Assembly (NCBI GenBank): GCA_965285935.1
Contig: OZ260664.1
Coordinates: 60,636,001 to 60,700,000 of the forward strand
Source of the DNA: Ophelia neglecta
Lineage: Eukaryota
Direction: 5' to 3'
Length of the DNA stretch: 64,000 bases
Made by a program: the position numbers and the translations under genes. The notes beneath the pieces were generated by a model, which had not been told where the DNA came from, ran no database searches, and saw only the letters and a list, made by a program, of their open reading frames with translations. The stretch's first letter is position 1. Each line of letters begins with the position of its first letter. Shown one piece after another: positions 16,336 to 36,331 of this stretch.

Positions 16336-16424
16336 TACCACATGAAAAGATGAAAATATTATAGTCATTCACTTCACACTCTTATTTGTAAAATCATTGT
16401 CTTTCTAAATATTGTTGTTATTAT

Positions 16425-16673
16425 TTAATCTGCACCCTCAAACGCCGTATTCGAATTCCCCACATACGTTTCGATTGTGGTGCTATCCGTCACTCCAAAT
16501 GACCCAGGAGAAGGTGAGGTAGAGGACAGCCACAAATCACTCTTGTATGTGTAAGCACCACCTCGCGGTGCTCGAACGACCATTTCCGTCTCGTCTGGTG
16601 CGTATTTTCCTGTGCGGTCCTTCTCCCGAGCTGGGCCCCAATTGTCTGTAGGCGAGCCAGACGCCTTCATCAA
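16425..16673 (-). CDS. SLC6 exon 15 (C-terminal tail, stop)
   Basis: aag|[20 protein letters not shown]...NTAFEGAD*; PxxxWGP is the typical SLC6 C-tail motif. Confidence 0.9.
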   Translation of the reverse strand: MMKASGSPTDNWGPAREKDRTGKYAPDETEMVVRAPRGGAYTYKSDLWLSSTSPSPGSFGVTDSTTIETYVGNSNTAFEGAD

Positions 16674-19600
16674 CTTTATAAAAGAAAAAGTACTCCCTTA
16701 ATCTCATTTCACGACCTGATTATTATTTTGATATATATGAACATCAAGTCTCTCATCAATAAAGGTCAAGAATAATTCATAGGTAAAATGTGTAAAATAA
16801 GATATGGATTATTATAATTATGATCAGCTGGGCCAGCATCCCAATATTCTGCTCCCATTGCCTGATGTCATTTATTCCCCCGAGCCTTATCGAGAAGTAG
16901 ATAAAGGTCAGTAAACAGGGTAGGATTCCAACGGCTAGGAATCTTATTCAAGCCACCAGGCTCAGGTTATTTTAAGTCGAATCTTCTTAAAGTTTGGTCA
17001 ACAAGATTGGCTTTTATTATATATATATCTAAATATGAATGCAACCACAAGGAACCATAGAGGACACAAACACTTCAATTTAAGACAGAACTAACCTTAC
17101 AAGCCCACATTTAATTACGAAATAAACCTACGTGTACTGTCGGGCTCCAACGAGATGTGAATGTTCTATGGCAGACGAGACACTTACCGTGTATCCTCCG
17201 TCAATCAGCCATTGGATTACCCACCAGGCGGGTATCCAGACGACCACTGCGGCCACCATGAGCCACCCCAACACGTTGGCCCAATCTGGGTACACGTACT
17301 CGCCATTAAACAAGGTCAAGCCAGTTTGCTGGACAGCCTTGAATGCCACTATCACCTAAATGGGAGCTAAGCATTAAAGTGGCTTATCTGTTTCTCCTGT
17401 TGGTTTAAAATGCTATATTTGAGTCCTTTAAGGAAATAATGGACCATTTACCAATAACCAATCTCGTTTCCAAGACAATCTGCCTTATTATTGTTCCGGC
17501 GCAATAAGATACCGAGTTGACAATAGTCAGGCCCATTGATGGGCATTTTAGTAATGGTATAAATTTCTTTTGAATTTAGAATATAAAGGGGCTTTGTGCA
17601 TCTTCGTGAACATGAAGAAAGGCGTTGGGGATAAGGTGGTCAACATTGACACAGACGGATTGACAGCGAACATGGAAAGCCTATAGTTGTCAAAAAACAC
17701 AATTATTTATTTCCCGAATTGTGAAACTCTATTCATCATTGCTAGATAAAATAACTTCAAATAACATGCATCCTTTTCTGTTTCAAAGTTCTATGATAGT
17801 CTAACTATCGAACATATAGCCAGTTTATTTATCATCTTCTTAATTAATGTACTCACAATAACTAATACGGGAGTGACCACTGTCCAGCATGAGCGATAGA
17901 ACCAGTCAGGTTTCTTTCCCACCATCAACTCAACATCACAGAGAAATTTGTTTAATCCTGTTGAATTAAGAATGATGGATGCCGTGTCTTTACACCTGGA
18001 CTTAGATATAAAACGTTCTGACAATTTCTAATGTATGGAATAGTTTGTTTTTAATACTAAAAAAAACAATGAATATACCGTAAATCCAAATGACGGCAAT
18101 TAATTCGAAAATTCCAGTGAAAAGTCTCGGAAACCCCCCGGCGTATGTATCCATAATGTTGAAAAGATAAAAACCTCCCTGAGAAAAAAGTCATAATTAA
18201 TACAGAATCTGACCCTGCATGTTTAACGAATCGAGTTTGCAAATGGTTTATTTTGATTAAAATAATCACGATTTTACCTCACAAACCATAGGAAGAGACA
18301 GCAGGAAAAAGAGAGAACAACCAATCCCTCGTAACAGAATGGGTCCCCATTTTACTTGAGAGATTACAGGAAACACATCCAGTAAGGCAGTGTATACACA
18401 CTCAACAATGGAAAACTGCAAAGATATACAAGCCTACATGTACATACACTTTTTTTGTGTTAGTTCGATAGAATCAAACACACGCCCACACAATGGCACA
18501 AAGCATGCTTCCTGTAGCACTAAAGACATGTGCAAATAAAACCAACTGCATTCCAGTAAGGGTTATGAAAACGAACTTTGAAATTATCACTTACACCATG
18601 CTTGAGCCGGCATACGATGTGGTACAGCGGACTGACATGATGTATGCTCTAGAGGCAATGCCTGAAGGGCATACATATTCAAGGCCGGTGTACCACTCCG
18701 TATACCGGGTTCATGTGTGTTGTTATGGTTTTATCATATACCTATACCACCAGCAGCATGAAAGCTAAGCTTACGACGGTATACGGGCTAGAACACCCGG
18801 GGTGGTCACCCAATCAGAGACGATTCTTATAGGTTTATGATAAAATCTTTACTTATAACACTTCACAGAATGAAAAAAAAAAGGTTTTCTTAACCGGTGT
18901 ACTTATTTTATTTGTTTAAATGGCTATACTAGTGTTCTTTATAAATTATATCACCTGTGAACTGAATCCGAGAGTGAGCATCATAAAGAAGAAGAAAAAT
19001 GACCAAAGTGGAGCTACTGGCATCTGGGACAGGCCCTCTGGGTACACCACGAAAATAAGACCCGGGCCTGCAGAAAAACACGAGACGCACCGTAACTGTC
19101 CTGAGCAACTTCCGGGTTTAATATATTAGAAATCGTAATTCATCATAACCGCTTTTAAAGGCCAGGGTATCGTTATACTAAGCAATCCATATATTTTGAA
19201 AAAAAATGAACGCCCTTAGTTTATCTGATCTAGCAGTTTTTCCAATGGAGGTAATAATTATTAATCACCAACTGCTAATTACATTCAAATTCCTTAAGCT
19301 CAGTATACGCCTAACTAAAGATTTAATTTGTGGTACCAATCACTAAATGGATTTCTAAAAGCAACATTGAATCAGATAGTTTTAAGTTTTGACGTACCAC
19401 TTTGGGCAACATCCGCTACATCCACGCCTTTCAGGACGGCCAAGAAACCTAAAACGCTGAATACTGCAAAACCAGCAAAAATACTTGTTCCACAGTTGAT
19501 CAGTGGGACCATGATGGAATCTCTGGAAAATCGTAGCAAGGCTATCAGTTTTGCTGTTTATTTTGTCGCATGTGGCTATTATTATATTTGACAAGAATGA

Positions 19601-22600
19601 AAGATAGAATTTAATGTATAATTTTTTTTCTAACACAGTAACAATTGAATAAACTTTTTATAAACTTATTAGATATTATTTTAATAACTATCGGTATCAT
19701 CATAAGTGCATCATGTTTAGACTTAAAAACCATAATAAATGTTGATGCATTCGCGTGATTCAGCTAAACTGTTGCTAGCAAACAAATTGTTATATGTCAT
19801 TTTATTCATATCGGCAGTGGCCCGAGAAGCAGGGTAGTTTGTATTGCCTCTTGGAGATTGCTGTTAGACAAACGCCTAGCGCAAAGGCTAGTAGCATAGG
19901 CCTATACTGTCTTGTGAGTTTTTTTTTCTAAAGTCATCTTAGTCCCCCATTCCTAAGAGGGTCTGGCTTCTAGAAGCACATTTATGCCGGGGCCTGGGTA
20001 GCAATCTCATGAGCTATGAATGTTTTCTTAGATAATTAAGCTATCGTATGAACCTATGACCGTCGAGGAAGACAACTGTTACATGGTATAATTCTAGCGT
20101 CAGACTAATTAGATACTTAATAATTGTTCCCTCTAATTTCTTACCTGTAGGCATTATTGTTGAACTTGTTATAGCTGGCCATGGCTATAAGGCCACCGGA
20201 ACATGTGCTCAAAGAATAGAAAATCTGTACAGCTGCATCGCTCCACACCTGGAAAATAGAGACCATGTGACATTCGGCAGCTGATTCCGACTCGAGCGCG
20301 GGCACTCCTTAACAGCCTAGAGAGGGAAAACAGCTAACCAGCATAATAACCTTATTACAGAATGATGTGGGGTATATTGTGATCTACGGCAGCCATTAAG
20401 TGGAAACTATCAAGAAGATCAGGTTGCTTTGCTTAATAGATTTTCTTGACCTAACCGACTGATACACGGGCATTATAAAATAAACATATATTTCACTGAA
20501 CAGGATAAAAGCGCTTGTTATATTTTTGCAGGAAGAAAGACCCATCTCGCTTTTAAAGTGTACCAGCTATGGTGAATAGCTGACCACAAACTCACACCCC
20601 CTAGCGTTGGGCATGAGACAAAACGCCTATGATGTGATGTACCTAAACTACTGATCCTATAGAACGGTTGTATTGAAAATACATGCACTTTTTATGTATT
20701 GATAATATGTATAGTTGGGTTATGCTATATCATGTTTTTACATCATTATTATCAGTTCGTGTAAATTCTCTCAAAAATGTCATATAGACGTTGAAACTTC
20801 GTTACCCAGTTTGTGACAGTGTACCGGTATAAATATCTATGGCCGTAGTTCGAGCTGATGGAATTGCATCGTGCCTGACAATTTTAATTCAGAGCGGAAT
20901 GTTCTAATTCGATGTATTTAAGGAAGTATTTAAACAAATATATGCTCTTTCTTGATAGTTGTCACATGACCCCAGACTACTTATTCAGTAGGGTGTACAT
21001 GTATTATTATTATAATTAGCAAATAAATCAGTTTGTCAGTATATATGCTTTTTTATGTATTGGTAGTAGGTATAGTTGGATTATACTATATCATGTTTTA
21101 CATCATTATTTTCAGTTCTCGTATATTCTCATAGAAATGTCATATACACGGTGAAACGTCGTTTTTATAGTAAAGGGAAAATATGCTAATGTCAAAATCA
21201 AAACTGCTTTGTCATTGCAAATTGAGTGCCAGTGGAGGCATGTTGAATCTTCTACCAAATATGCAGATTCTTCACGTTAACAGCTCTAGCTTAAGTGCCC
21301 TAGTAATTACGTTGGTGACTATTTAATATTGTGCACGAGGTTAAAATGAACACAGTTTTCAATAATTTAACAATTGGAATTTAAGGTGTTTATATCAATT
21401 AAAATGCTGCATTTTTTATATTTCGCACATATTACAGCTGGGGAACAAGGGACTGGTGGGCCTACAGCTGGTTCATTCCGCTGATTTCATGCCGATTCAA
21501 TCTACAATTTAGAGCACTTGTTTTTCCGGTTTATATTAATAAACACATTGTATACACATTTGGCATTTTTCCATAGTGCCAAAATTTGATGATCGAGTCT
21601 TATATGTTTAATGCGTGATCCTTCAGTTTTCACTGGCAGTTGGTCTAAAGTTTTGGAAAACGTGACAAAGCTAACCTCGGCATCAGCCAACTTGTTCCAA
21701 TCGGGTTTGAGATAAAACTCGATACCTGTACCAGCTCCAGGCAGCATACACCCTCGGACCACCATAATCAGCATCATCACGTACGGGAAAGTCGAAGTAA
21801 AGTAAACCACCTTTAATTAGAATGAGCGAGAAAACTGATTATGTTTTGTGGTTTATGAAATTTGTCCTTAACTTATACTATCCATGAGCCAACCATACAT
21901 GTATACAGTGTTACTATCGGATAGGTCTATCCGGCACCAAGTAGCATTTTTAACCTACAAACCTTTCCAAGAGAAGCGATCCCTTTTAAAAGGACTAGAA
22001 AGACAACCCCCCATGCTAGGAAAAGACTTCCAACAAGGGTCCAAACCAGACTTCCCATCTGGTCTATGCCTGGTGATAACTTAAGCACCTGGTTACTAAA
22101 TGGTTATGAAGAAAAAAACGTATTGTAAAATTTGTCCACGCCATACATATTGAATGTGGTTCTGAATAACAAGATATATAGGTTTATGAAAAACGTCATT
22201 GCCAGAACAATCATAAAAGGGCACGGACTAGAAATACTCTTCACTCGGAGTCCGGATGTCTTCGTTGGTCATGTTATATTCTAAAAATCATTGAAAAGAT
22301 ATTTTAAAATCTTATTTCGATATGTGAACTAACAGAGTTCACACTGCACCATATACAGGCTAACCGAACATCATATTTACATTTACATTTACGTTTAAAT
22401 TACACATATTCCGCTCTTAATTCTGTCATGGTTACATCGGCATAAGACTGATGGTGTTTCATCAACTTATTTACCACAATGTTTCCTTTACTTCCATTTT
22501 GTAGTTGTGAATATTCACAATACCTTTGTATTTTCTATTTATACAATGTACCTAGTTGTTCATGGTGTTTTATATATTTTTTTGCTTGAATACCTTCGAG

Positions 22601-24342
22601 ATAATAATCAACATATGTTTTGTTGGCCATCTCGTCAGCAGTCATACATTGGTATGTGTTCCACGAGTTGTCGCAATCTGTCCAGGGAAGTACACTGGTC
22701 ATGGAGGCGAAAAAGTAATATATGATGTAAGCTACCAGAATGTTGTAGTACAGTCCTACGAAAGTGGACACGGTCACCATGGCCAGCCCTATACCTATTA
22801 AAAGAGAAGCGCGAGTTCAACAGCTTTTCAATACAGCAATTAATGACACACTAATTCTCAGCCATAATAATGTTTGTGTACAAATTCTAAAGAATTCACC
22901 TTTAAATAGAGGGTTGACACTCCATATTTTTAGTGGTCCCAGGCTCGCAAATTGCCCAAAACAAACTTCGAAATAAAAAAGGGGCATGCCGCACAAAGCC
23001 ATCATAATGAAATAAGGTATGAGGAAGGCGCCTGGAAGATATAATCATTAATATCATTATTTAGTAAAATTATATGGAATGTTATTTGTAACAGGTTTGC
23101 ATTTAGGAATAAGGACTCCTTTGTCAATTTATCATTTATGTTTTTTCAGTCCACAAACATCGAAACAAACTTTATAAAAAGAGTGGGTTTCATGATAAAA
23201 TTTAAAGAAAGAAAAAGTTGTTCGAAAGTAACCTTCTAGCTCCCCCCCTCCCCCCCGCCATTTTTCTAATGGTGCGTCCCGTATTGATATTTTGGCACTG
23301 TCCTCACCCCCGCCATTTTTGAAGCACAGATATGGAAATCTCCAGACGTTTCCAAGTCCCACGGCGTATCCCACTACAGTGAGTATAAACTCTAGTTGAC
23401 TTCCCCACTGCTCTCTGGTGTCTTCTTCGTCGTCAATCTTCTCCTCGGTATCAACATCTCCTTGACTTGTCGACTGGCTCTCCTCGCCCTTGTCAACTTC
23501 ACCGCTTTTCCCCTAACATAATAATTTATATGACAAATACGAACAGGAATACCAGTTTATTGGCTATCCTCTATTAACAGAATGATTAAACTCTCGAAAA
23601 AAGAACTGTTAGCTGTAGAAATAACATTAAATAATTGTAATTGCCCTGCATTTTGCAAATGTTATTCAAATTATTATCTCCATCCATATTGCAAACTCGG
23701 GAGGCGGGGTTGGGTATTTTAAACGTATAACTAGACCTCATACTTACGGTATTTTAATATATATATATATACTAAGAAGATATTAACTGCGGGTTGTCCT
23801 TTAGATATCCCGTTAAAGGTCCACTAACGAATGCACCCAGAAAGTAGTTAATCTATGTTGAATGCATATGTGTGCCTACAATAATTATGGAAACTGGATA
23901 TAACACCTTAGTAGCTCCTTGCTTTTATCTATTTTATCCTACTCCCATTTAAATTTGTTTAATCTTCTGCAATAAGGAAAATACAAAGAACTCTGGCTGC
24001 CGAAAAAACGCGCAGTGGGGCGGATGGCTATTGTTTAATGAAGCTTAGTTGATAATGTATGACGACAGAATACTACCACATAATGGAAAAGAAAGTTTTC
24101 TGATCGTATTTACTGTTTATTTATTATCTTCAGTGTCTTATTTGCATCGACCATGGCACCAACTATCCTGACCATTGTTTAAATAATGCCATACGTTCAT
24201 TTTGACAAAAGTTTATAAGCGATACTACAACAACCTAACTCAAAATACACGATTACTATAGTTCATTTGATTACGCCTAGATATGAACGAAAACCAAACT
24301 CACCATATCCAAATCTGGGGCTTCTTTATCACTTGTTGTCAT
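16425..24342 (-). CDS. SLC6 (NSS) Na+/Cl--dependent amino-acid-type transporter, GlyT/PROT-like invertebrate member; 15 coding exons, 1995 nt, 664 aa
   Basis: Exons: 24304-24342, 23308-23512, 22900-23031, 22594-22794, 22229-22280, 21963-22095, 21676-21810, 20145-20248, 19398-19522, 18955-19067, 18278-18415, 18079-18178, 17857-17957, 17188-17355, 16425-16673. All introns are GT-AG with compatible phases and give one open frame. Family motifs: [37 protein letters not shown], LPWxxCxNxWNTxxC, [38 protein letters not shown]. Confidence 0.95.
17188..17355 (-). CDS. SLC6 exon 14 (TM12)
   Basis: tag|VIVAFK...[26 protein letters not shown]...GGYT|gtaagt. Confidence 0.94.
17857..17957 (-). CDS. SLC6 exon 13 (TM11)
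   Basis: cag|[34 protein letters not shown]|gtgagt. Confidence 0.94.
18079..18178 (-). CDS. SLC6 exon 12 (TM10)
   Basis: cag|[33 protein letters not shown]|gtatat. Confidence 0.93.
18278..18415 (-). CDS. SLC6 exon 11 (TM8 end, TM9)
   Basis: cag|[46 protein letters not shown]|gtaaaa. Confidence 0.93.
18955..19067 (-). CDS. SLC6 exon 10 (EL4, TM8)
   Basis: cag|[38 protein letters not shown]|gtgata. Confidence 0.95.
19398..19522 (-). CDS. SLC6 exon 9 (TM7)
   Basis: cag|[41 protein letters not shown]|gtacgt. Confidence 0.95.
20145..20248 (-). CDS. SLC6 exon 8 (TM6)
   Basis: cag|[35 protein letters not shown]|gtaag. Confidence 0.95.
20689..21163. repeat. ~115-bp diverged direct repeat (20689-20803 and 21049-21163) in SLC6 intron 7
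   Basis: ttttatgtattg..ta.ta.gtatagttgg.ttat.ctatatcatgtttt..catcattatt.tcagttc...aaatgtcatata.acg.tgaaac.tcgtt occurs twice, 360 bp apart. Confidence 0.9.
21676..21810 (-). CDS. SLC6 exon 7 (TM5)
   Basis: aag|[45 protein letters not shown]|gttagc. Confidence 0.95.
21963..22095 (-). CDS. SLC6 exon 6 (TM4)
   Basis: tttag|[45 protein letters not shown]|gtttgt. Confidence 0.93.
22229..22280 (-). CDS. SLC6 exon 5 (52-nt EL2 exon)
   Basis: ttttag|[19 protein letters not shown]|gtccgt; contains the conserved PSEEY motif. Confidence 0.88.
22594..22794 (-). CDS. SLC6 exon 4 (TM3, start of EL2)
   Basis: tag|[23 protein letters not shown]...[15 protein letters not shown]...YYLE|gtattc; the donor was chosen by phase match to exon 5. 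Confidence 0.88.
22900..23031 (-). CDS. SLC6 exon 3 (TM2)
   Basis: cag|[44 protein letters not shown]|gtgaat. Confidence 0.95.
23108..23283. mobile_element. MITE relic in SLC6 intron 2 (poly-C followed by a TAATGGTGCGTCCC terminus)
   Basis: The same 14-bp terminus, preceded by a C-run, recurs at 28990-29003, which indicates a dispersed family. The left boundary is uncertain. Confidence 0.5.
23308..23512 (-). CDS. SLC6 exon 2 (N-terminus, TM1)
   Basis: tag|GKSGEVD...[36 protein letters not shown]|gtgag. Confidence 0.95.
24304..24342 (-). CDS. SLC6 exon 1 ([13 protein letters not shown])
   Basis: ATG at 24342-24340, 13 open codons, strong gtgagt donor; phase 0 matches exon 2. No homology support for this short N-terminus. 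Confidence 0.7.
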
Positions 24343-29489: not shown

Positions 29490-30040
29490 TGTTATGAATG
29501 GCGGTAACTAGACAGACACAAGTGATTGCTATATGAATTGCAGAGACTCGACAGACACAAGTGGATGATACGAATGACGGGATCTCGACAGATACAACAA
29601 AAGTTGAACCCCTCATGAGAGACCACAAATAAGTGGTCTTATATGAGGGGTGGTTTCTCATCAGGGGTTGAAATACATGGCAGGTGTAGCAAACCGTTTA
29701 GCAAAAAGAGCTGTTTTGGCCATGTTTGGGTGGTCTTTCAACAGGGGTTTCATTGTACATGACATAAATGAAGGGACCTTGACATACTCAAGTGTTTGAT
29801 ACGAATAGCGGGAACTCGACAGACACAAGTGGTTGATACGAATGGCGGGAAGTCAAATGAGGCAGACTAAATTTGTGTTGGCACGAATGACAGAAACCCG
29901 AATGACATAACTTAAGTGGTTGATGCAAACGACTGACACAAGTAGATGATACGAATGGCCGGAACTCGACATGCGCAAGTTGTTGACTAAATGGCGGAAC
30001 CTCGACAAACTCAAGTGGTAGATACGAATGGCGGGAACGC
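29490..30040. repeat. Degenerate ~37-bp minisatellite (GATACGAATGGCGGGAACTCGACAGACACAAGTGGTT) downstream of the receptor stop
   Basis: Repeated gatacgaatg..gg.actcgaca.acacaagtg units, interrupted at ~29600-29757. Confidence 0.85.
29598..29757. mobile_element. MITE nested in the 37-bp minisatellite
   Basis: Imperfect TIRs (GTTGAACCCCT ... AGGGGTTTCATTGTA), with internal GACCAC/GTGGTC and AGGGG sub-repeats. Confidence 0.6.
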
Positions 30041-30583: not shown

Positions 30584-31212
30584 TCACGTGACGGGCTTTT
30601 TGTCGTCTATGGTCCCCTTTAGGATGGTTTCGTCGCCCAGTAGGCTGAAATAACTCTTAGTCAGGGGGTGAAAGAGGAGAAGGGTGGTGATAACAATGGC
30701 CGACAGAAACGTCCAGAAGAACAGTCTGTCCACCACCTCGGCCAGACGCCGCCATTCCCTCGCCCATTCGTCTTCCAACTTTTTCTGATCCTTTTTTGGA
30801 CGCCTTTCCTCTTCTTGTTGGAAGGTGTAGTGCGAGCGGAATTGGGCTCCGTGGCGGTCGACCAGGGCGCCACCTTCCGCGCGGCTGGCCCCTCCTCTCG
30901 ATCTCTCGCTGGTTGTCTGGTTAGGACCCCCGTTGACGTTGGCTAACAGACCTATCTGACTGCTGATAGCCTTACCAAGGCTGTTTGGAGTAACTCGGTA
31001 TTTGTCCTTTTTAGCCTTATTCAGCTCATTCTCGTCTGCCTCACTTTGGGGCACATATTGACACATACATAGCAGTCGGGCGAGGTAAACGAGGACGATC
31101 GTGTGGGCCCAGCGCGGGACAGGCCGGTCATTGATGTGATGTAAGTTGAGGACAAACACAGTTAACACCATCGACAGTGTAGTGATTGCCATGGTGCACG
31201 TCAGATAGATAC
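30584..31212 (-). CDS. nAChR-like last exon (M3, intracellular loop, M4, stop)
   Basis: ctcag|GIYLTCTMAITTLSMVLTVFVLNLHH...EWRRLAEVVDRLFFWTFLSAIVITTLLLF...KKPVT*. Confidence 0.95.
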
Positions 31213-34200
31213 CTGAGAGAGAAAAAAATGGAAACAGTGTCAAAGACAATTCAATATATATTTTATATAGGTCAAGCCCTAATTGGTTCGTAAAATATCG
31301 TGCGTTTTTTTTTGTCAAACAAACATCTTAAGTTGTTTCATCAAAAGAACGAGTAAAATAATAACATGATAAAAAACCTTTGTCGTACCGAGCAGGGGTA
31401 TGTGGTCTGATGTTTTAGGAATACTGTCAGTCACATTCAGTAGAAAAATCCTAAATGACAATAATACTACAACTCCTATTTGTACTTTCTGCGCAGGCGT
31501 ACAGAAGAATATTGACAGTAAGAGTACGGAAGTCATTAGACTAGGAAGGATGACGTTCATGATGTAGAATGTGTACCGCCGGCGTAAGTACACATTAAAG
31601 GCGACATTTGCAAATTTTTCATCAGGACAGCAATCAAAGAAGAATTCCTGTCGTATCACTTCTGTGTTATATATCTCCCACTCTCCATTTTGTTCATAAC
31701 TATCCATGTTCACTTTTTGATCGGTATTTGACAGGTTCATTTTGGTCGTGTGGTAGCTCCACGCGCCAAACTTCAGAAAACATTTTTGTTCGTCGAAGGG
31801 GTAGTAGGTTATGTCTATTTCACATACGGTTTTGAACACCCCTCCGGGTTCCCAGTGGACTTTACCATCGTAAGAGATGATGGCGCGAAACTGACCATAA
31901 TCTCCGTATATTCCATCGGCTCTGAAATGAAAAATCTCAAAATGTATTTTTAAACAATACACACGTTACAAAGTTAAATGTCTTTATGCCAGCAACATAA
32001 AGTCTAGAGACTAGTGGTGCTTAAACAAACTTTGAATCTGTAATCAATGCATGTCCGACACGCTCACATGGTGAACTCTAATTGACCCAGAAAGCAAATG
32101 ACGCTTGGCATGCTTTCGTCGATGACGTCACCACCAGAAGGCAGCGGCACCCAGGGACACAGTGCTCTGGCAAAACGCGTCAATTGCCTTCGGGTTTAAA
32201 TAGGTCAAACGTCATACATAGCAAACCAATTAGAGGCAGCCTTTTTTTAAACACACCAATTACACATAGACAATATGTGCGTCAGCAGTAGCTTGTGCAC
32301 ACTGGTTTCTATCATCGAATGATTTTAAACCTTTTTTTGCTGAAAGTCTCCAGACTTTATGTGGCTGGTGTAAATAACACATTGATTAAGACGAAGAAGC
32401 GGCATCCGGCGGCTTTAGAATACAAACATTATTTGGACAGGACGTTTGTACATACATGCTCGACCACGAGGCATGCGTTCAATCTAGTCTTGGTTAACTC
32501 ACCGGATAAACTTGAGAAAGGTCCTTACCAACAAATCAGCGAGGTAAAACACATATACATATACTGTTGCTTGTTTTATTAGTTCAATAGCCTTCCTACA
32601 CTTGTGGGTGTATAATTATGCGAAAACAAATGCAGGTTTGTGTTAGTTTAGGAAAGCAGCAAAACGACATTATTACCTGTATTTAAGAAATTATCAGTTA
32701 TTACGCATATACATAGCCGAATTTTAACGGCAATCGTGACGACAAACAATTACAAAAACACACATCATCCTAAGAATTTCTAGGTCTTCATCGGATTTCA
32801 TCGCCCGAGGCTACAATGCATGGTTTAACGTGCAGCATAATAAAGGTATGTGGGATCGAGGAGAAGAAAAACTACAGACCCATTAATGGCGGCAAATTCG
32901 GGTCGCCACAACTGTTTGGCTTCTATGACCAGGTCATCTATTGGAATCTTGACGGGGTCCCACCTCAATCTCTCGTCGTACCATTCCTGTATCAAATCAA
33001 CAATATTTAAAGAGATGGCCGATAATAATTTAAGTTAATGATTTCCCATTTCTATTGCCCCCCGTCTCGGAATTAAATAAATGGTCATGGCCCGCCCTCA
33101 AATCTTTCTTAATTATATCTATATTATTAAATTCAAAAAACCTATTTTTGATAAGGTAAATCATCATGTTTGGTTGAATTATGATTTTCTACGACAGCAT
33201 CCAATTATTGGAGCTTGCATTATCTCCCTCTCAAAAAGCGAACTGATGTCTCATTAAATTGATGTGTTGCAGACAGGTGGTGCTGATTTGTACGGCATTA
33301 AATTAAGTGTGTATATGCAAAAATGGGAAATATATGTACATGAAATGGATTTTTCATGACATTGCCAACTTAAGCTTTCTGCCTTGCCAAAGCTGGGATT
33401 AAAAAAGAAATAATATTATGACTACTCCCATGTTTCACTGGGTATGAGAGTATTCATTTATCAGTAGGCCTAAACACTTTGTTGCTCTACCCTTTCTAAA
33501 TTGGAGCAAAATATAGTATATGGACTTTATTCATTGGTGAGAAGGATAGTCTTGCAGATAGGATTGCTATTATGACGTATAGCTCATGAATAATTTTTTT
33601 TTCGTTAATTGTCGCAAACATTTCTAATATCTATTTAAATATGAATCTTCATTCAAATAAGTAACATGTTAAGTCCCGTAGACTGCGGAAAGTCCGCGAC
33701 AGCAGGGGGACATGCTGCAGGCCTGTTTTGCGCATTCGACGGTGTCGTTTGTTGCATTGTAGATTCATAAACCCTTAGTGGTTTTACTTAGCTATAGACG
33801 AATGTAATTTTGTGTGCGTGGGGAATCCAGATCAGATAGTCATTTTTTAACATTGTTCTCAAAAATATTTTCCAAGAAAAAGACGGAGAAGAAAACCTTA
33901 AATTCCATTGGACGTTAAATTGAATAAAAAAACAAGCCTCTATTGTGTCGTTTTTCTTCAACGGCAATTATAAGATATAACAATACGTTTCTGACTACTT
34001 TTGCCATCATTTCTATACGGCTTGCTAATACCTGCCTCAGAAATCTGATGATGTCGAATTTCAAAGGAATGTTTTTTGTCTTACCAGGATGAGTAACCCT
34101 GTCGTAGTTAGAACTTGATTTCGCAGATTCTGGAAGAGAAAATATGAATAAACTGTTTTAGTTCATAACGATGGCAGCTCGTTCCTTCATTCACTTGAAT

Positions 34201-36331
34201 TCATCCTTGAATGAATATTTTTCTTGGCGACAGGCTTAGATTTTCTGGACTATTTATGTGTCTTTAACGCCTGACTTAGTTTACTTGTTACTGCACGGCT
34301 TTTGTAAAGATCAAATTATCATTACCCAGTGAGCCGGCTTGCATGGGATTTGAATACACTTGAAGAAAACAAACAATGAATTGTAATCTAAATACAGTTT
34401 TTTTACTAGTCCTATTATTCTACTAGACATAAAGTAATGTTCCAATTTCATACGTTAAAACAGGGCAGATATTTCCTCGAGCACTCCTGGACAACGTGGG
34501 GTATAACATTAGGCAATTATATATCCAATGATTAATGCTTGGATGTTTAGGCTTGGAGACGCTGGCTTCTGAAAGTGACATTGTATGTGGCTTTGGGGAC
34601 TAAGACATACCAGCTGGGGAGTTAACTGCTGATCAGGAAAAAGACCGCTCGCTGAATTTAAGGAGAATTGTTTGTCAGTAGACATGAAGATGATAAATCA
34701 GCAAAGAACGGGTAAATTTGAATTAAATCACCAAAAAAACGTGTGCTAAACAGGATCGTCTGGTTGATCGAAATGTAGGTATTTATACATTCAACTCCAC
34801 ACGCCCTGCATTTAGGCGGTCTCTGAATTTCCAAGTATGTCTTATAAAGAAAGCGGTCATTTAAGAAAACCTATCATAATGTCTGATTAATTACGTTAAT
34901 TTTTACTTCATGTACTAACTACACTAATTAAAGCGTTCGTGTTCCCCTTAATAAAAATACGTGAATTTCACTGGGAATATATTATGGGAAATGCTTCGAA
35001 ACTTTTGAAATCCCATATTTTTATCCTTTTTCGTACGAATATCGATCGTATTAGTGAAAATGAATAACATAATACACTCTATTAAAAGAAACTTGCTAAA
35101 ATAAACATCGAAATATTTTATTCAATCAAAAAATAATATAGTTTCCTTGAATTTATCGGACTTATTACCCGATTCAGCGACTGAGGTATTCATTTTATTT
35201 TCCATGAAATTTGGACACTCTGTGTTAATTTAAGGAAAAAAAATGGCTGAAAGTTCATTCGCTGTTCGGTTTCATTTGTGCCAATGTTCTGCGAGCGTTA
35301 TCGCGTAGCCCTCCTTCGAATTGATGTCAAAGTAATTTGCTTTAGCCCCTATAAAGATAGATATGTCGACAAGAACAAGGCAGGTAAGCAACTTGTATCT
35401 AGTTCTCCAAGTAAAGCACTTAGTCTCAATCCACGAAAGTACAGGTATCTCATAGAACCTATTGTAGAGTCATTTTGTTGTCAATATAAGGTAGCGAACA
35501 GAAAACGTCACACAGTAAATGTTGGTTAAGGTTAGGCATAATGGAAAAAAATGTCAAATTTGTCATTGAGTTCACAAAATCTACCCACTACGAACAAATA
35601 CCACAAGGCATTGCAAGGCCAACCTCATCTCCATTTTGACAAAATTGGTTACCGCTATAAATGAATAAAGTTAACACAATATATAGGGGGTGAGGAAGGG
35701 CTGAGAAGTGACTTCAAGGTTAAACAATGACATTAGTGTAGACGACGTGAGATCACGGCATTTTAATTTTATTAAGCGACCTTGCTAAGCAAGTGCTTAA
35801 AAAGGTCACAGTGAAGGTCGTCCTTGGCGCTTTGAGTCTTCTTTCCGGCTCTAATTTTGCATGCTAGTAATAGACTGGTAAACATGTAGTTTCAGTATTA
35901 GCAAAGGCGGATGATCAGCCTCTGGTATAGTGCGCTGAATACAATGAATTATAAACGAGTGGGTATTTATCTCACAAATATTGGTCCGTCTTTTATGATT
36001 GGATTTAAAATTTAAGCTGCCGACAACTCTTTGTCTTACTGCCTGCCAAGCAGGTGTGCATACATACACGGCCCTAATAAACTATACCGAATGCAGGGCC
36101 TACATACACTTCTACAAAGGGTAACATGAACCACCAAGTTGTTTATTCCAGAAAGTTCTGAATAAAGCCTGCTTACCAGTTCCTGTATTTGTAACAATGA
36201 AAATTGCATTTTTACATCGACTGTGTGGGAGGAATTAATCACTGGACGCGCGGAGGGATTGTAGCCGTCAAAAAGTAGTTCCAATAACCGTTCTTCGTCT
36301 GATGGCAGCCGTGGAGTCACCATTGAGGCTG
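30584..36331 (-). CDS. Divergent nicotinic acetylcholine receptor-like Cys-loop ligand-gated ion channel subunit (alpha-type, vicinal Cys); 5' partial
   Basis: Exons 36177-36331, 34085-34129, 32880-32986, 31389-31921 and 30584-31212 are GT-AG, phase-compatible and give one open frame of about 489 codons. Motifs: EERLLELLFDGYNPSARPV, NQVLTT, WxDxRLRWDP, Cys-loop CEIDITYYPFDEQKC, FGAWSY, NGEW, loop-C CC, LRRR, four TM helices, PKTSDHIPLLG, EWRRLAEVVDRLF. The signal-peptide exon was not identified. Confidence 0.95.
31389..31921 (-). CDS. nAChR-like exon (Cys-loop, loops B and C, M1, M2)
   Basis: ttcag|ADGIYGDYGQFRA...CEIDITYYPFDEQKC...FFFDCCPDEKF...IPKTSDHIPLL|gtacga. Confidence 0.95.
32880..32986 (-). 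CDS. nAChR-like exon (loop A)
   Basis: tacag|EWYDERLRWDPVKIPIDDLVIEAKQLWRPEFAAING|gtctgt; phase 2 matches the next exon. Confidence 0.92.
34085..34129 (-). CDS. nAChR-like 45-nt exon (loop 2, loop D)
   Basis: ttccag|NLRNQVLTTTGLLIL|gtaag; same size and position as the conserved DEKNQxLTTNxWL exon. Confidence 0.92.
36177..36331 (-). CDS. nAChR-like exon (mature N-terminal helix, beta1)
   Basis: tttcag|(cag)ASMVTPRLPSDEERLLELLFDGYNPSARPVINSSHTVDVKMQFSLLQIQEL|gtaagc; NAGNAG acceptor. Confidence 0.9.

Follow-up and report, generated by a model that had tools for sequence, protein, structure and literature searches.

This locus raises the question of whether a nicotinic-like subunit gene with a rebuilt ligand pocket encodes a working channel, and whether such a channel would answer to acetylcholine or to another signal. 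Within the window (the whole 64,000-nt stretch of Ophelia neglecta DNA that was analysed) we located five exons of the gene on the minus strand between 30584 and 36331. With splicing inferred from sequence and homology, they join into a single open frame of 489 residues whose only stop is the terminal one (TGA), and AG/GT ends are found at all four introns. The first of the located coding exons (36177..36331, 155 nt) runs from the N-terminal helix to beta1 and matches positions 1-39 of Pfam PF02931 (E 9e-07). The second (34085..34129, 45 nt), also found with the same size at the related locus L011, carries the beta1-beta2 loop NLRNQ and loop D (TTTGLLIL), and the third (32880..32986, 107 nt) carries loop A (WRPEFAAING). 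The fourth (31389..31921, 533 nt), to which the exon span of the related loci L001-L004 corresponds, encodes loop E, the Cys-loop, loops B, F and C, M1 and M2, and the last (30584..31212, 629 nt) encodes M3, the intracellular loop, M4 and the stop codon TGA and matches PF02932 (E 4e-17). All exon, motif and codon positions of the gene are on the minus strand. PF02931 or PF02932 was matched by all four exons scanned, the 45-nt exon being too short to scan, and together with the C-X13-C Cys-loop in the 533-nt exon (31824-31780) these matches place the protein in the nicotinic branch of the Cys-loop receptors, with the vicinal Cys-Cys of an alpha-type subunit. The motifs on which the original prediction was built (NLRNQ, TTTGLLIL, WRPEFAAING, WSY, FDCCPDEKF) are all present in these exons; the span it had given, 31600..34129, falls inside the gene, which reaches at least from 30584 to 36331.

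The exon-3 donor is weak (GG/GTCTGT) and occupies the identical codon position to the donors of L003, L004 and L011, the three related loci examined. Two scans for a signal-peptide exon, expected upstream of 36331, returned only weak and far-off candidates, none of which was accepted; the best of those rejected lies at 54479-54410 (phase 1). Assembled contigs of run X1 are identical to the window across all five exons, and X1 may derive from the same sample. No second Cys-loop gene was found within the 64-kb window. Intron 3 holds a MITE-like high-copy element (31983-32374) with 30-nt terminal inverted repeats and a summed contig depth of tens of thousands versus about 37 nearby, which stops about 60 nt short of the next acceptor. 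A further high-copy repeat lies at 29500-29700, about 0.9 kb downstream of the stop codon. About 7 kb downstream of the subunit gene, a multi-exon SLC6 sodium:neurotransmitter symporter gene occupies 16400-23520 on the minus strand, and two of its exons are closest to the glycine transporters GlyT1/GlyT2 among solved structures; a functional tie between the two genes was set aside, since adjacency alone is no evidence. On the plus strand, a weak RVT_1 match at 2504-2848 (E 3e-04, below the Pfam cut-off) is probably a retroelement remnant. At L001, many tandem copies resembling the start of the M3 exon lie in the intron before the last exon (~1400-2450).

Searching with the 533-nt exon yielded 24 longer proteins, 22 of them at 59-87% identity, with one sister-clade protein at 47% and one nematode subunit at 28% making up the rest. 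A profile search gave 70 proteins, of which the 13 organism-named ones come from Capitella, Dimorphilus, Helobdella, Ridgeia, Lamellibrachia, Paralvinella and Intoshia; all 13 are thus from annelids or Intoshia and none from a cephalopod, and the restriction of the clade to annelids and Intoshia rests on these 13 of the 70. Among full-length relatives, Dimorphilus DgyrCDS8593 (P0174) comes closest, with 81% identity over a 303-residue core; region by region, the identities are 156/208 (75%) in the extracellular domain, 84/88 (95%) in M1-M3, 22/22 (100%) in M2, 45/97 in the intracellular loop and 29/33 in M4. The two parts of a split Paralvinella model share 84% and 77% identity with the window protein, and Capitella members of the clade stand at 65-73%. 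Capitella, Dimorphilus and Helobdella have three named paralogues each, and Intoshia, Ridgeia and Lamellibrachia two each. Four full-length relatives (P0010, P0011, P0016, P0017) are intronless and lie on 1.8-2.7 kb contigs, a hint of spliced transcripts in other animals, with which intronless gene copies would look alike.

FastTree was run on 158 rows, and IQ-TREE (LG+G4, no mixture model) on 73 of these, picked by hand: all 24 clade rows, 10 from the sister group, one from Owenia, 16 from the superclade and 22 outgroup rows. The trees took rows covering at least 200 core residues, with no vertebrate alpha9/10 and no named DopC sequence among them. In the IQ-TREE analysis the 24 clade rows form a group at 100/100, inside which the window protein and P0174 pair at 100/99. 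This clade groups first with an annelid sister lineage and Owenia (100/97) and then, at the next node (100/98), with a divergent lophotrochozoan superclade that includes Patella, Lottia, Haliotis, Lingula and Watersipora; the superclade, whose long branches were flagged by the tree program, is sister (99/98) to an alpha9/10-like invertebrate group. The annelid sister clade comprises P0019, P0037, P0223-P0229 and P0236, with Owenia P0027 alongside.

Pocket and pore sites were counted across the 75 of 255 proteins that show at least 55% identity over at least 100 residues; n changes with coverage, and the counts take in fragments and near-duplicates, so that they are not independent events. The register was taken from HMMER alignments of two close relatives, P0011 and P0174, to human alpha7, alpha2, alpha3, alpha4, alpha6 and beta3, with Torpedo/alpha7 residue numbers and M2 prime numbers used as customary labels. 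At the sites concerned, P0011, P0174 and the window protein agree: Leu stands at the TrpD position, Glu replaces the loop-A Asp, Ile replaces TyrA, and Phe occupies both C1 and C2. The TrpD position (codon 34096-34094) is Leu in 15/21 clade proteins and Trp in none of the 21, compared with Trp in 116/136 background proteins. In loop A, the Glu that replaces Asp (32899-32897) is found in 22/22 clade proteins versus Asp in 126/136 of the background, and the TyrA site (32887-32885) is Ile in 23/29 and Tyr in 0/29, versus a background Tyr in 104/136. The DYGG turn is replaced and one residue shorter, and TrpB (31759..31761) is invariant (70/70).

On the complementary face, the loop-E motif WEPGG (31840..31854) places a Glu (31851-31849) at the site equivalent to alpha7 Leu119, in the register of the HMMER alignment; it is present in 61/62 clade proteins (54/54 in a separate count), and an acid also occurs there in 24/163 non-clade proteins. 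Vertebrate alpha9 and alpha10 have Asp at this site and are nevertheless acetylcholine-gated. The loop-E doublet is Pro-Gly instead of Pro-Pro in 62/62 clade proteins, yet loss of the second Pro is not diagnostic, because only 59/136 background proteins have Pro-Pro. Loop C (31603..31653) contains an extra Phe two residues before C1 (31644-31642; 70/71, and 54/54 in the separate count), Phe at C1 (31638-31636), the vicinal Cys-Cys (31632-31627) and Phe at C2 (31614-31612). C1 is Tyr in 37/71 and Phe in 32/71 clade proteins, and it is Phe in the nearest relatives of the window protein (P0174, P0023, P0040, L001); the C2 Phe is found in 66/71, but also in 36/136 background proteins, and it accompanies the cysteine pair in 58/71. 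Paralogues P0005, P0009, P0015 and P0017 have lost the vicinal cysteines and keep the other clade signatures. Mean conservation is 0.79 over 11 pocket sites versus 0.70 over the exon-4 part of the extracellular domain, a modest gap. Both faces of the pocket have invariant residues, which fits a real site at the interfaces between clade subunits.

In earlier work on the binding site the aromatic ring was reported as the part of C2 that matters, the hydroxyls of TyrA and TyrC1 were reported to be important for quaternary-ammonium agonists, and it is normal for alpha subunits providing the principal face alone to have a non-aromatic residue in loop D (PMC4006026). The window protein has neither the TyrA nor the TyrC1 hydroxyl (Ile and Phe). 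The claim that four of the five cage aromatics are lost thus holds for TyrA and TrpD and is overstated for loop C, where the C2 Phe keeps its ring and C1 is often Tyr; the check on whether the substitutions are fixed in an orthologous clade gave a positive answer for loops A and D. The loop-C changes are weaker evidence than those of loops A and D. The original prediction missed the loop-E Glu, the Pro-Gly of loop E, the extra loop-C Phe and the rebuilt pore.

The end of M1, a shortened M1-M2 linker and M2 are encoded at 31426..31509. The linker has 18 residues in all 67 clade proteins in which it could be measured, versus 20 in the sister clade, the superclade and nearly all measured background proteins, and the HMMER alignment places a two-residue linker gap against alpha3 and alpha4. 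Position -1' is Gln (31491-31489), found in 67/70 clade proteins and in 0/163 outside, where Glu prevails (145/163), and 12', a position expected to face away from the pore, is Arg (31452-31450) in 67/69 clade proteins versus 1/163 outside. The remaining M2 positions of the window protein read Gln 2', Val 6', Leu 9', Asn 17' and Asp 20', with Gln or His at 2', Val or Ala at 6' and Asn at 17' in 66/69 across the clade. The filter itself reads P-A-Q-K with Pro at -3', and P-A-K at -2' to 0' is absent. Several annelids each have paralogues that share this pore signature. In one study of the intermediate ring, taking away its glutamates is reported to bring the potential there up toward 0 mV (PMC2217203).

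The coupling loop between beta1 and beta2 is altered as well, NLRNQ having Leu in place of the Glu of DEKNQ; none of the 15 clade proteins in which the loop is clear has this Glu, whereas it persists in the four sequences inspected from the sister clade or Owenia. It is a gating-coupling residue, and its absence could mean poor gating by agonists. The rebuilt pore is a more distinctive feature than the changes in the pocket. A predicted model of P0174, the relative and not the window protein itself, has the beta-sandwich and four-helix fold, with the four-helix bundle kept and a mean pLDDT of 85.8; its best matches are nicotinic receptors, the top VIA-align match being alpha7 (Z 28.6, rmsd 6.6, 381 aligned, 32% identity).

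The sister clade shares the loop-A, D and E changes (loop-A Glu in 8/9, loop-E Glu in 10/10, TyrA and TrpD lost), so the pocket change is older than the clade, and its pore is conventional, with Glu-1' and Thr12' kept in 10/10. The sister clade has Leu or Ile at C1. Owenia P0027 is intermediate, with Thr-1' and Asn12'. The tree suggests that the pocket changed first and that the pore and the beta1-beta2 loop followed later; the sister clade represents a second orphan family and offers a natural control.

A subunit of such unusual composition might be a decaying or relaxed gene copy, a reading to which the weak exon-3 donor and the failure of two scans to find a signal-peptide exon lend some colour. 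Against it, the frame is open, an orthologue is 81% identical, and against four related loci compared over the same 531-nt coding span pN is 0.16-0.23 versus a pS of 0.80-0.93 (we give no dN/dS ratio, because synonymous sites are saturated). Moreover, all four exonic alleles seen against X1 are synonymous, among the differences listed, beyond which there are 85 further differences. From these comparisons the gene is under purifying selection, and decay or relaxation is extremely improbable. The expectation of a functional rather than a decaying gene is thus borne out by the open frame, the orthologue, the 22/22 identity of M2, a pN far below pS and the synonymous listed alleles.

We then compared the clade with known receptors. 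Like the vertebrate nicotinic alphas (alpha7 and alpha2/3/4/6), it has the fold, the Cys-loop, the vicinal Cys-Cys, TrpB and Leu9'; unlike them, it lacks TyrA, TrpD and Glu-1', has Glu in loops A and E and Arg at 12', and has a linker two residues shorter. Honey bee alpha5 has dopamine as its preferred agonist even though it retains TrpB, TrpD and the two loop-C Tyr, and restoring its second loop-E Pro moves efficacy from dopamine back toward acetylcholine (PMC12700902). The aromatic box is therefore a poor predictor of the ligand, and the proposed non-acetylcholine agonist is likely, no more. The clade shares with bee alpha5 the non-diagnostic loss of the second loop-E Pro and differs from the bee subunit, which is permeable to Na+ and has TrpD together with the two loop-C Tyr (PMC12700902), TrpD being absent from the clade; the bee loop-E pattern was found in none of the fetched proteins searched. 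The dopamine-gated DopC channels of octopus, Aplysia, bee and Daphnia were placed near alpha9/10 by their authors (10.1101/2025.04.02.646353). Like DopC and bee alpha5, the clade is nicotinic-derived and, if the likely reading holds, prefers a ligand other than acetylcholine, and the superclade is here sister to the alpha9/10-like invertebrate group, but DopC spans molluscs, arthropods and nematodes, whereas the named members of the clade come from annelids and Intoshia. The lophotrochozoan AChRB anion channels (PAK motif) are also nicotinic-derived and also lack Glu-1'; they are acetylcholine-gated, however, and have P-A-K where the clade has P-x-Q-K and a short linker, and the PAK-type octopus P0096 falls far outside the clade in the IQ-TREE analysis.

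The annelid orphans Alpo1, Alpo2 and Alpo4 are described as giving no response to the ligands tested (PMC4801368, PMC10338036). Alvinella Alpo1 and Alpo4 are annelid nicotinic-like subunits as are those of the clade, and in oocytes they are reported to give no response to acetylcholine. Alpo4 lacks the Cys-Cys, has Met16' and shares 27% identity with P0174; the window gene was judged not to be Alpo4. Alpo1, like the clade, is without the -1' acid (PMC4801368); the closest homologues of Alpo1 and Alpo4 are put at 36-37% (PMC10338036), versus 65-73% for the Capitella members of the clade, and the window gene is unlikely to be Alpo1. The cephalopod chemotactile receptors CRT1 and CRB1 are likewise nicotinic-derived with a remodelled pocket, yet they share only 26% and 22% identity with P0174, lower than alpha7, and the clade pocket is conserved, not diversifying. 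With alpha5 and beta3 the clade shares a degenerate principal face (alpha5 having Cys-Cys without the loop-C Tyr), but it forms a separate lineage in the tree, its complementary face and pore are rebuilt too, and the C1 aromatic is kept.

According to PMC6896357, annelids have 52-129 nicotinic-like genes, nicotinic-like expansion with pocket degeneration occurs in lophotrochozoans, and 13/33 oyster alpha subunits have a complete principal site; annelid subunits grouping with alpha9 are mentioned in PMC8634148. An orphan annelid nicotinic-like subunit is unsurprising, because the lophotrochozoan expansion and the Alpo orphans are known. Our literature search, which covered few subscription papers, found no description of the clade or of its pore signature; six clade-member locus tags matched no papers, six of the seven supplements of PMC6896357 held no match to the clade, and a word search of the part of PMC12403961 at hand gave nothing relevant. 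Searching the ESM Atlas retrieved generic nicotinic clusters only. Clade members are probably already among the unannotated rows of published trees.

With modest confidence we favour a functional homopentamer or intra-clade heteropentamer whose cation selectivity would be weakened and whose opening ligand would be something other than acetylcholine, likely a small amine. In this proposal the subunit would assemble with itself or with clade paralogues into a channel. The absence of TrpD and TyrA would leave a roomier pocket, in which the invariant TrpB and the ring of the C2 Phe would bind a small endogenous amine and the adjacent subunit would supply the loop-E Glu to neutralise it, while loss of the -1' glutamate ring would remove an electrostatic well for cations. 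A signal other than acetylcholine seems likely because both the pocket and the ion filter are unlike those of true nicotinic receptors.

[quoted passage not shown] Conservation is indeed highest in the membrane part (M1-M3 95%, M2 100%, versus 75% for the extracellular domain), and several paralogues have lost the Cys-Cys (58/71 keeping it together with the C2 Phe); a dead site, however, would not need the clade-specific loop-E Glu and the extra loop-C Phe to be frozen at 54/54 each, and two to three paralogues per species with one pore signature fit assembly among themselves. Rather improbable is a low-affinity acetylcholine or choline receptor that would manage without the lost Tyr and Trp by means of TrpB, the Phe rings and the loop-E Glu: TrpB, the Cys-Cys, the C2 ring and the 37/71 proteins with Tyr at C1 speak for it, as does the bee alpha5, which still answers millimolar acetylcholine (PMC12700902), while TyrA and TrpD are missing clade-wide and the C1 hydroxyl is also missing in the nearest relatives of the window protein. 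It is quite improbable that an environmental cue (protons, metals, hydrophobic surface compounds) gates the channel or that it stands partly open without ligand. The replacement of TrpD and TyrA by hydrophobic residues and the rebuilt coupling loop and pore would suit such a channel, and there are precedents in the cephalopod CRs (PMC11526382) and the pH-gated Alpo7 (PMC4801368); but octopus CR pockets are reported to be under diversifying selection (PMC11526382), and key sites of the clade pocket do not vary. An endogenous ligand fits better than an environmental cue, given this invariance and a low, stable copy number.

The favoured amine-gated channel can be taken further, to an annelid family of fast receptors built on the nicotinic plan that a non-acetylcholine amine opens and that are anion-conducting or non-selective, their filter (short linker, Gln-1', Arg12') having no relation to PAR/PAK. 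We put this wider proposal forward as doubtful; if true, it would be a further independent route by which both ligand and ion selectivity were switched in the Cys-loop superfamily. Lophotrochozoans have dozens to hundreds of nicotinic-like genes to which no function is assigned, and the majority come from rapidly evolving lineage expansions and are difficult to deorphanise. The clade, in contrast, is small, old and highly conserved, which makes a fixed ligand and a core role in annelids probable. Judging by its conserved, rebuilt pocket, coupling loop and pore, it is a good target for deorphanisation and offers a set of two to three paralogues per species for screening in tractable animals (Capitella, leeches), with predictions at the level of single residues for how the ligand is recognised and how ions are selected. 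If these are confirmed, Cys-loop biology would gain a transmitter-receptor pair or a selectivity filter not seen before.
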